DNA of 64,000 nt. Source: a virus. Below, one piece after another: positions 30,155-30,624 of this stretch; position 1 is the first letter of the stretch, and each line of letters begins with the position of its first letter. Location of the stretch: UHGV virus genome UHGV-0042229; one strand, given 5' to 3'. Below the pieces are notes generated by a model. It did not search any database. It worked only from the letters and a program-made list of their open reading frames with translations, and was not told the origin of the DNA. The position numbers were made by a program, and so were the translations under genes.

Positions 30155-30179
30155 GTAGATTGGGATATGAACCCGTTAC
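30155..30179 (+). repeat. 25-bp direct repeat copy A (GTAGATTGGGATATGAACCCGTTAC)
   Basis: 24/25 identical to copy B at 30434-30458; contains the ATG of track ORF 30167-30358. Confidence 0.6.
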
Positions 30180-30433
30180 AGGAGAATGCTCTTACCTGTT
30201 ACGTGCTCCGTTTCGTGGAGCTAACGGCGGGTGATCGGGCCGCACCAGACTGGACTTATTTCAGCGTTATGCTCATGCCAGAGAATCAAACTGTGATGGT
30301 CGGTGCTGAACTCCGACACAGGGTTGTAGCAAGCCCCGCAAAGCGCGCACTACTGTAGTTGCGGCACATCAGCCTGTGCATTCACCACAATGTTGAGAAC
30401 ACTGGTTGTCACGCTGCAACGCAACATTTATTC

Positions 30434-30458
30434 GTAGATTGGGATATGACCCCGTTAC
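30434..30458 (+). repeat. 25-bp direct repeat copy B (GTAGATTGGGATATGACCCCGTTAC)
   Basis: See copy A; adjacent to one arm of a 14-bp inverted repeat (30391-30405 / 30460-30473). Confidence 0.6.
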
Positions 30459-30624
30459 GCCAGTGTTCTCAACGTTGAAGTGCCGGTTACGGTTCCGGCC
30501 AGGCCTCTTCCTCAACGGGGTGTTCTCCATACGGACTACCGTTTATTGGTCGTTCCTGCGGTTTATGTTGTGAAGCCAGATGCTTATCTTCTGGTTGCTT
30601 CAAAGAGCTGCACTTCATCACAAC

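Follow-up and report, generated by a model that had tools for sequence, protein, structure and literature searches.

Two 25-bp Repeats Downstream of the tRNA Genes of a P1-Like Phage as Probable Apices of a Conserved RNA Module

Introduction

Why does a P1-like phage carry two nearly identical 25-bp sequences a few hundred base pairs apart, between its tRNA genes and the next protein gene? The question arises in the virus genome UHGV-0042229, of which a stretch of 64,000 nucleotides (hereafter the window, with positions counted from its first letter) was analyzed; the window shares 99% identity with phage P1, in reversed orientation. The direct repeat GTAGATTGGGATATGA(A/C)CCCGTTAC occurs at 30155-30179 and again at 30434-30458, with 24/25 identical positions and a spacing of 279 bp. 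This is far beyond chance, as the expectation for one pair of 25-mers with at most one mismatch anywhere in 64 kb is ~1e-4 by simple arithmetic. The core GATTGGGATATGAMCCC occurs without mismatch only at these two sites in the window, and with up to three mismatches it gives 3 matches, against 0.24 expected from shuffles. A first-pass annotation, made from the letters alone, had reported the repeat pair in the leader of a tRNA operon and had suggested a regulatory RNA structure, a duplicated leader peptide, or a recombination scar.

The orientation of the locus is central to these suggestions. The ban/tRNA operon lies on the minus strand, and its transcription runs from high to low coordinates. 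According to the P1 annotation, the palindromic C1 operator Oban (Op72ab) and the ban promoters (31513-31544, no strand assigned) are the source of minus-strand transcription for the entire region. Since the genes for tRNA-Asn(GUU) (30785-30860) and tRNA-Thr(UGU) (30707-30782) are also on the minus strand, transcription from Oban reaches the repeats after both tRNAs. The repeats are therefore not in the leader of the tRNA operon but downstream of trnA-trnT, in the ~730-nt spacer between trnT and tciA. The latter gene (TerB family; 29550-29975, minus strand) is the first protein gene downstream, and is followed in the P1 annotation by tciB, tciC, trnI, and ban.

Our favored answer is that the two 25-mers are the invariant apices of paralogous copies of a conserved minus-strand RNA module, upstream of which both tRNAs lie in a common transcript, and that the module serves as a processed spacer or stable RNA. 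This combined reading, which we consider more likely than not, blends a high confidence in the structure with a distinctly lower one in the mechanism.

Architecture of the Module

On the minus strand, each 25-mer forms the invariant tip of a module of ~90-105 nt. The two modules, designated M1 and M2, follow a common plan, in which a nearly perfect outer helix (~20 bp) is combined with an inner hairpin of the form UAACGGG-NUCAUAU-CCCAAUCUA, whose apex consists of a 3-bp G-C stem (GGG/CCC) and a 7-nt loop. The tail GGUGAAUGC directly follows both modules and is succeeded by a small hairpin. M2 (30378-30482, minus strand; covariance-model match 30378-30480, 45.3 bits, E ~1e-10) carries copy 2 of the 25-mer (GUAACGGGGUCAUAUCCCAAUCUAC, 30434-30458) at its apex, within the inner hairpin CGUA-ACGGGGUCAUAUCCCAAUC-UACG, and also possesses a side hairpin (UGUUGCGUUGCAGCGUGACA) and the 3′ tail GGUGAAUGC. 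Its outer helix of ~22 bp (21 pairs and one mismatch) is the inverted repeat that the first-pass annotation had seen around the second copy; it is real and longer than the 14 bp noted, with arms of 23 nt (30383-30405 and 30460-30482) that are 87% complementary.

M1 (30117-30210, minus strand; covariance-model match 30117-30204, 44.5 bits, E ~1e-10) has copy 1 (GUAACGGGUUCAUAUCCCAAUCUAC, 30155-30179, loop UUCAUAU) as its apex, within the inner hairpin CCUGUA-ACGGGUUCAUAUCCCAAUC-UACAGG. It lacks the side hairpin, its outer helix (5′ arm ~30210-30188, 3′ arm ~30143-30121) differs in sequence from that of M2, and its 3′ tail GGUGAAUGC occupies 30125-30117. An inverted repeat thus flanks copy 1 as well (30131-30143 and 30184-30196); neither this nor the flank GCATTCACC(G/A)CAA, which recurs at 30117, 30378, and more weakly 30611, had been mentioned in the first-pass annotation. 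Folding of the copy-2 region, a check proposed there, yielded -45.7 kcal/mol (z -4.2) for M2 on the minus strand. M1 folds at -35 kcal/mol, with z -4.16 on the minus strand versus -2.33 on the plus strand, and the entire trnT-tciA spacer has a fold z of -5.25.

Conservation, Covariation, and Strand

A third version of the module, referred to as type C (~19 contigs), shares the apex and the GGUGAAUGC tail, while its outer, inner, and side stems are quite different; as in M2, there is a small side hairpin. From 14 type C sequences and no others, a covariance model was constructed; run on the window with filters off, it recovered M1 and M2 at full length and no other match in the 64 kb. Base pairs were counted in a model-based alignment of 48 distinct sequences, while a MAFFT alignment of all three types was not used for this purpose because it mis-registered the stems by 2 columns. 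Standard pairs fill 94.4% of the cells, compared with 32-46% when the partners are slid by 1-3 columns, and both-sided changes are found in 17 of the 33 pairs. The covariation score is 0.432, versus 0.06-0.12 for the slid controls, and 0 of 500 shuffles scored as high.

The apex behaves in the opposite manner to the stems. Among 44 distinct sequences, no change occurs in the columns TAACGGG.TCATATCCCAAT, and the apical 20 nt are constant throughout the aligned set, while about half of the stem positions differ; the sole variable base of the motif is loop position 32 (U, G, or A). All motif-bearing variants (n = 48) share one fold, except L109, which is a chance motif match, and the hybrid type represented by phage SJ46. 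The aligned pairs include 116 G-U cells and 33 A-C cells, an excess that makes pairing better on the minus, or operon-sense, strand (94.4% vs. 88.9%). Taken together, a selected RNA structure on the minus strand is very probable, and the sequence of its outer helix appears to be free to vary provided that pairing is kept. The earlier idea of a regulatory RNA structure thus holds insofar as both copies fold into homologous, evolutionarily kept hairpins, but these are formed by the strand opposite to the one noted.

Neighboring Hairpins

Several smaller structures on the minus strand adjoin the modules. The hairpin GCACAGGCUGAUGUGC (30364-30379) stands directly after the GGUGAAU tail of M2, and its relatives have GCGC..GCGC or UCGC..GCGA stems with an unchanged loop. 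Immediately 5′ of M2 is the hairpin GGCCGGAACCGUAACCGGCAC (30480-30500), the 3′ half of which resembles the 3′ end of tRNA-Thr (CCGUUAACCGGCACCA); in P1, it has the appearance of a relic tRNA-Thr end. In phage PY54, the same hairpin stands ahead of the module.

A third long hairpin, M3 (30619-30705, minus strand), lies directly 3′ of trnT. Its outer stem is related to those of the modules and it has the flank GUUGUGAUGAAGUG, while its inner part is T-arm-like (AGGGUUCGAAUCCCU) in place of the 25-mer. With a covariance-model score of only 9-14 bits, M3 was rejected as a member of the M1/M2 family. In relatives, the M3 outer stem encloses other inserts, namely GAGAGUUCGACUCUC in contig L009 and a different one in phage JL22.

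Distribution and Mosaic Organization of the Spacer

Matches to the module were found in 635 plasmid records of PLSDB, mostly non-mobilizable replicons of 90-115 kb from Escherichia, Salmonella, Shigella, and Klebsiella, and the 17-base core was present in more than 120 stretches of viral contigs. Apart from three matches that are probably due to chance, a scan of species-representative genomes detected the module only in Yersinia alsatica and in one P1-like contig of Escherichia. In the tRNA-linked contigs, the tRNAs are always oriented as the module, and the array reads Asn or Arg, with or without Tyr, then Thr, the module(s), with or without Ser, and Met/Ile(CAU) further downstream. The start of M2 or M1 lies 1-2 bases past the CCA end of an intact tRNA-Thr in several contigs. 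The modules sit at the ends of tRNA genes or their relics and belong to a shuffled tRNA-cassette array.

The comparison across P1-like genomes that the first-pass annotation had recommended shows a conserved repeat apex and a variable copy number. Among the named P1-like phages the spacer is a mosaic. Both copies are present in P1, JL22, and RCS47. In SJ46, and likewise in several viral contigs, a deletion runs exactly between the two 25-mers, leaving a hybrid composed of the M2 5′ arm and the M1 3′ arm; these arms are unpaired, the fold drops to -25.8 kcal/mol (vs. -39 to -56), and the model score falls to 32 bits. D6 and P7 have kept M2, with the 5′ half of M1 replaced by a tRNA-Ser(UGA) gene and another long hairpin. 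In Ro157c2YLVW and CMS-2020a a tRNA-Tyr has been added, and an insert of 170 bp in JL22 is bordered by a second copy of 23 bp of the M3 3′ arm. As regards the suggested recombination scar, the pair itself is not one, both modules being intact; the scar is the single hybrid copy, for which the 25-mers served as recombination substrate.

Type C occurs in other surroundings. Yersinia phage PY54 has it between its methylase and holin genes, and it also occurs in Y. alsatica and in lambdoid-type contigs; in one of these, L016, it lies between the gene for the Q antiterminator and those for holins and endolysin. A Q homologue lies upstream of the type C module in 11/19 loci checked, mostly within 0.1-2.2 kb. 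Type C is no E. coli element, since it had no match in 5426 complete Escherichia coli genomes. As a separate observation, the module is part of a ~270-nt late-leader unit that ends in a strong intrinsic terminator in PY54 (L134, 2437-2818) and in L016 (6240-6790, minus strand), and this unit looks like an unannotated small-RNA gene or an attenuator ahead of the holin gene. In addition, the contigs L070 and L119 each carry two type C modules ~2.5 kb apart on one strand, one of which is situated ~40 nt past a tRNA-Arg(UCU) gene and its terminator.

Relation to Known RNAs

The module belongs to a known general kind, the structured non-coding RNAs of phages and prophages, and is undescribed within Rfam 15, the full-text literature, and annotated phage, plasmid, and E. 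coli collections; its nearest neighbor is STnc100/PasD. Comparison of the modules with all 4227 Rfam families, at E up to 10 and over 28500-32500 together with the L016 leader, gave no match; over M2 there were chance-level hits of microRNA type only, and no ribozyme or riboswitch. The motif, searched as text in the literature, led to unrelated papers only, and a search for P1 transcriptome studies yielded nothing of use. Three tRNAs were called in the window by ARAGORN and the Rfam tRNA model, neither of which placed one at M1, M2, or M3; the lack of a cloverleaf at the modules led to the rejection of a tRNA or tRNA-like identity. A hammerhead or other ribozyme, considered on account of the three-way junction and a CUGAUG in the next hairpin, was likewise dismissed, as the junction strands do not fit and no Rfam family matched. 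Within the window, the only sites complementary to the apex are the repeats themselves and one site with 3 mismatches at 55387.

An STnc100/PasD-like domain (30009-30128, minus strand) lies directly 3′ of M1 and forms the 5′ untranslated region of tciA. It matches Rfam RF02076 (STnc100) with 39.2 bits, below the gathering score of 47, at E 3e-6. The domain opens with UGCGGUGAAUGC and closes with CACCGCA; in the RF02076 alignment, UGCGGUG of the 5′ GGUGAAU segment pairs with this distal CACCGCA to form the closing helix. Rfam gave no STnc100 match after M2. STnc100 and PasD1/PasD2 of enteropathogenic E. coli (EPEC) are held to be related prophage small RNAs near Q and lysis genes (bioRxiv 10.64898/2026.05.13.724894). 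PasD1 of E. coli E2348/69, located by its published coordinates (PMC8550237 supplement), opens with CGCAUGGUGAAUCC, the same opening as that of the sequence after each module.

The resemblance to these RNAs therefore concerns what follows the module, which begins with (U)GCGGUGAAUGC and a small hairpin as in PasD1 and the STnc100 consensus, and also the location, since the Hfq-bound STnc100 and PasD1/PasD2 of Salmonella and of EPEC and enterohemorrhagic E. coli occupy the equivalent lambdoid-prophage site between Q and the lysis genes. On the other hand, the 25-mers and hairpin modules lie outside the STnc100 match, and PasD1 of E2348/69 has no module in front. The domain in the window also differs in ending without a terminator: no intrinsic terminator was found on the minus strand between 30128 and tciA, and the domain continues without a break to the start codon of tciA at 29975. 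A BLAST comparison of the spacer with the PasD1 locus of E2348/69 gave no significant similarity, and the link to PasD1 consists only of the short GGUGAAU start and the Rfam model.

Other known RNAs are comparable by setting or by shape. Stable or spacer-derived RNAs of tRNA operons reportedly include the species 1 and 2 RNAs of the T4 tRNA cluster and the 3′ETS-leuZ sponge of E. coli. As in those systems, a structured non-tRNA RNA in a polycistronic tRNA precursor here flanks tRNA 3′ ends; the likeness is one of context only, with no similarity of sequence or structure expected, and stable release is putative in the present case. Phage early transcripts also carry processing hairpins for RNase III (T7 R1-R5 and the lambda N leader). 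The modules share with them ~20-bp near-perfect intergenic helices between the units of a long phage transcript, and the predicted helices reach the length of an RNase III substrate (~20 bp of double-stranded RNA), with 21 pairs in M2 and 18-22 pairs in M1 and the Yersinia-type modules. Those hairpins, however, lack both a three-way junction and an invariant motif at the apex.

Finally, the apex resembles the anticodon arm of the initiator tRNA (tRNA-fMet), whose sequence was confirmed to be present in each of the 5426 E. coli genomes. The alignment of ACGGG-UUCAUAU-CCCAA with UCGGG-CUCAUAA-CCCGA gives 13/17 identical positions, including three G-C pairs beside a 7-nt loop, U33, CAU, and A37, and position 32 is variable in the motif, as would be expected of an anticodon loop. 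The differences are that the remainder of the module is not tRNA-like, that positions 32 and 38 are not the same, and that the stem has only 3 bp. The likeness was spotted post hoc and could be a coincidence.

Possible Mechanisms and Points Against Them

With regard to function, we tentatively propose a processing or stable-RNA mechanism, which should be regarded as possible rather than probable. The module would be co-transcribed with tRNA-Asn and tRNA-Thr from the C1-controlled ban promoter as an RNA-level spacer element of the polycistronic precursor. Maturation of the tRNAs, possibly with cutting by RNase III or RNase E at the long helix, would free the module; alternatively, it may remain attached to the downstream RNA as a protected 5′ terminus. 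The long helix might thus act as an RNase III target or as a 5′-end protector that stabilizes the excised piece. The product would be a stable small RNA, with the unchanging loop as a putative recognition surface for a protein or RNA partner. Processing in cis alone would leave the fixed apex unexplained, while a small RNA acting in trans alone would leave the strict placement unexplained, and both are therefore retained.

A quite improbable variant is that the apex imitates the anticodon arm of the initiator tRNA, its U-turn loop of the form N-U-CAU-A-U being closed by three G-C pairs. Mounted on a very stable helix and produced from a phage tRNA array, it would act in trans, as a decoy or by competition, on a factor by which this arm is recognized. 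Candidate factors may include a VapC-type anticodon nuclease (which cuts tRNA-fMet), another defense tRNase, MetRS, TilS, or the ribosomal P site. If so, a tRNA-fMet decoy would complement the spare tRNAs of the phage (Asn, Tyr, Thr, Ser, Arg, and Ile2), which perhaps themselves counter tRNA-cutting toxins.

Several points weigh against the favored explanation of a conserved, processed or stable RNA module. The alignment used for pair counting was fitted to the model, which favors pairing, and the compensatory changes are mostly those between the three module types, so that independent events are few. The module is dispensable: CRISPR interference knock-down over upl/plp, the two hypothetical genes annotated at this place in P1, produced no phenotype (PMC10695390), SJ46-type phages carry the broken hybrid, and D6 and P7 have a single copy. 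The Y. alsatica copy is without the GGUGAAUGC tail. The discrete stable RNA is putative, and part of the function is left over, since an apex of 23 nt that never changes is more than a mere processing signal would require.

Alternative Explanations

In the GenBank record of P1, upl and plp are annotated on the plus strand with predicted promoters, which suggests that the repeats could be duplicated translation starts of small plus-strand genes or of a leader peptide. As the first-pass annotation stated, one repeat ATG opens a 63-aa open reading frame (ORF), which is in the ORF list (upl, 30167-30358, plus strand; start codon inside copy 1), and a 10-codon ORF can be read from the ATG at 30448, in frame within a 39-aa ORF starting with TTG (the plp remnant, 30359-30478, plus strand; 125 aa in P1). 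Both ATGs are antisense to the operon. The single point in favor of upl is that its frame is open across ~57 codons in relatives of ~90% identity; in these, the start codon is absent and changes at second codon positions are as frequent as at third positions, and close relatives show 6 non-synonymous changes and 1 synonymous change. SJ46 does not have the ORF at all, and D6 and P7 retain only a minor part of it, without the start codon. As for plp, it overlaps trnT in antisense in P1 and is cut short in the window, where a nonsense mutation (TGT>TGA) is present at 30478; this substitution also replaces an A-U pair by a U-U mismatch at the foot of the M2 outer helix. No Pfam family, the only family resource used here, was found for either ORF, no sigma-70-like promoter was detected on either strand over 29400-31700, and the upl ATG, as read from the sequence, is placed 2 nt past GGGA, a poor ribosome-binding-site spacing. 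None of 12 sampled plasmid records, out of the 635, lists a coding gene under the match, which is weak evidence given the incomplete gene table of PLSDB. Both upl and plp are probably not genes, the RNA element probably taking their place, and a coding origin of the repeats, including the duplicated leader peptide, is very improbable. A recent tandem duplication without a function of its own would account for the alignment of M1, M2, and their downstream flanks over ~180 nt and for a copy number that differs among relatives. It is nevertheless the least probable of the explanations weighed here: the stems of the two copies have diverged almost completely and are still paired, with an identical apex, and the third version from Yersinia phages behaves likewise, a pattern that indicates purifying selection on both structure and apex.

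Complementarity alone fits hairpins of DNA as well as of RNA, and the spacer is strongly mosaic, with breakpoints that coincide with parts of the module, as in the SJ46 deletion at the 25-mers, the JL22 insert, and the swaps of tRNA-Ser, tRNA-Tyr, and tRNA-Arg cassettes. The elements could accordingly act as DNA, either as tRNA-cassette junctions (palindromes akin to miniature inverted-repeat transposable elements (MITEs), or a recombinase site) or as priming hairpins of single-stranded DNA, their RNA folding being incidental. MITE-like palindromes such as ERIC and Correia elements are indeed transcribed, intergenic, and ~100 nt long with terminal inverted repeats of ~20 bp, as are the modules; yet here the pattern is reversed, with variable ends and an invariant center, and the copies number 1-2 per genome in a constant operon context (two in the 64 kb of the window, both in one spacer), so that identity with a MITE or ERIC-like element was rejected. 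There is also no evident target-site duplication, no dedicated recombinase is encoded nearby, the hosts include non-integrating plasmid prophages (P1 and PY54), and ordinary homologous recombination between repeats of 25 bp would suffice to explain the SJ46 deletion. That a transcript is involved is indicated by the surplus of G-U relative to A-C pairs and by the tRNAs and operons, with which the modules are strictly co-oriented; a DNA-level element is considered unlikely. Somewhat less likely still is a transcription signal in cis, that is, a terminator, an attenuator, or an antitermination RNA like put of HK022, for ban or the late operons. Such a role would suit the Yersinia-type module, which stands in late-operon leaders from Q to the lysis genes; in most contigs it lies just after an intrinsic terminator, with another ~190 nt downstream in L016 and PY54, and the ban leader of P1 also has an upstream terminator. 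The modules are not terminators themselves, since a U-run follows neither M1 nor M2, and no cis-regulatory family of Rfam matched. A put-like element should moreover precede the terminators it overrides, whereas the module directly follows one, and in the P1 family the modules come after the tRNAs, ~1 kb from the promoter, and are two in number.

Implications

P1 is among the most used and best annotated phages, and this spacer is annotated in it with two hypothetical genes, apparently on the wrong strand; the present reading would correct an annotation that has been copied into many genomes. The proposed structured-RNA family is common to hundreds of P1-like phage-plasmids, Yersinia phage PY54, and related prophages, and it is tied to tRNA arrays and a Q-controlled late leader, adjoining Hfq-binding prophage small RNAs (STnc100/PasD). 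It is a candidate for a new phage RNA function in processing, stability, or decoy activity. In addition, the spacer illustrates how tRNA cassettes and spacers can be shuffled through recombination at short conserved RNA-coding segments.

Other Features of the Region

The tRNA cassettes of P1-like genomes (contigs L008-L127, D6, P7, CMS-2020a, and Ro157c2YLVW) vary in composition, with Asn or Arg(UCU), Tyr present or absent, Thr, Ser(UGA) present or absent, and Ile2/Met(CAU). The array adjoins genes named for tellurite/colicin resistance. The targets of colicin E5 include Asn and Tyr tRNAs, and the target of colicin D includes an Arg tRNA.

Upstream of the tRNAs, an intrinsic terminator consisting of GCCCAUCUUCGGGUGGGC and a U-run occupies 31333-31352 (minus strand), within the annotated dicF-like part of the ban leader, and transcripts from the ban promoters must read through it on the way to the tRNAs, the tci genes, and ban. 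Further upstream, the ORF of the dmt methyltransferase (31533-34574, minus strand) encodes 1013 aa in the window, compared with 754 aa in P1. The ~259 additional residues interrupt the C5-methylase motif GGTPC|QAFS and carry a Hint domain and a LAGLIDADG endonuclease domain, which identifies the insert as an intein.

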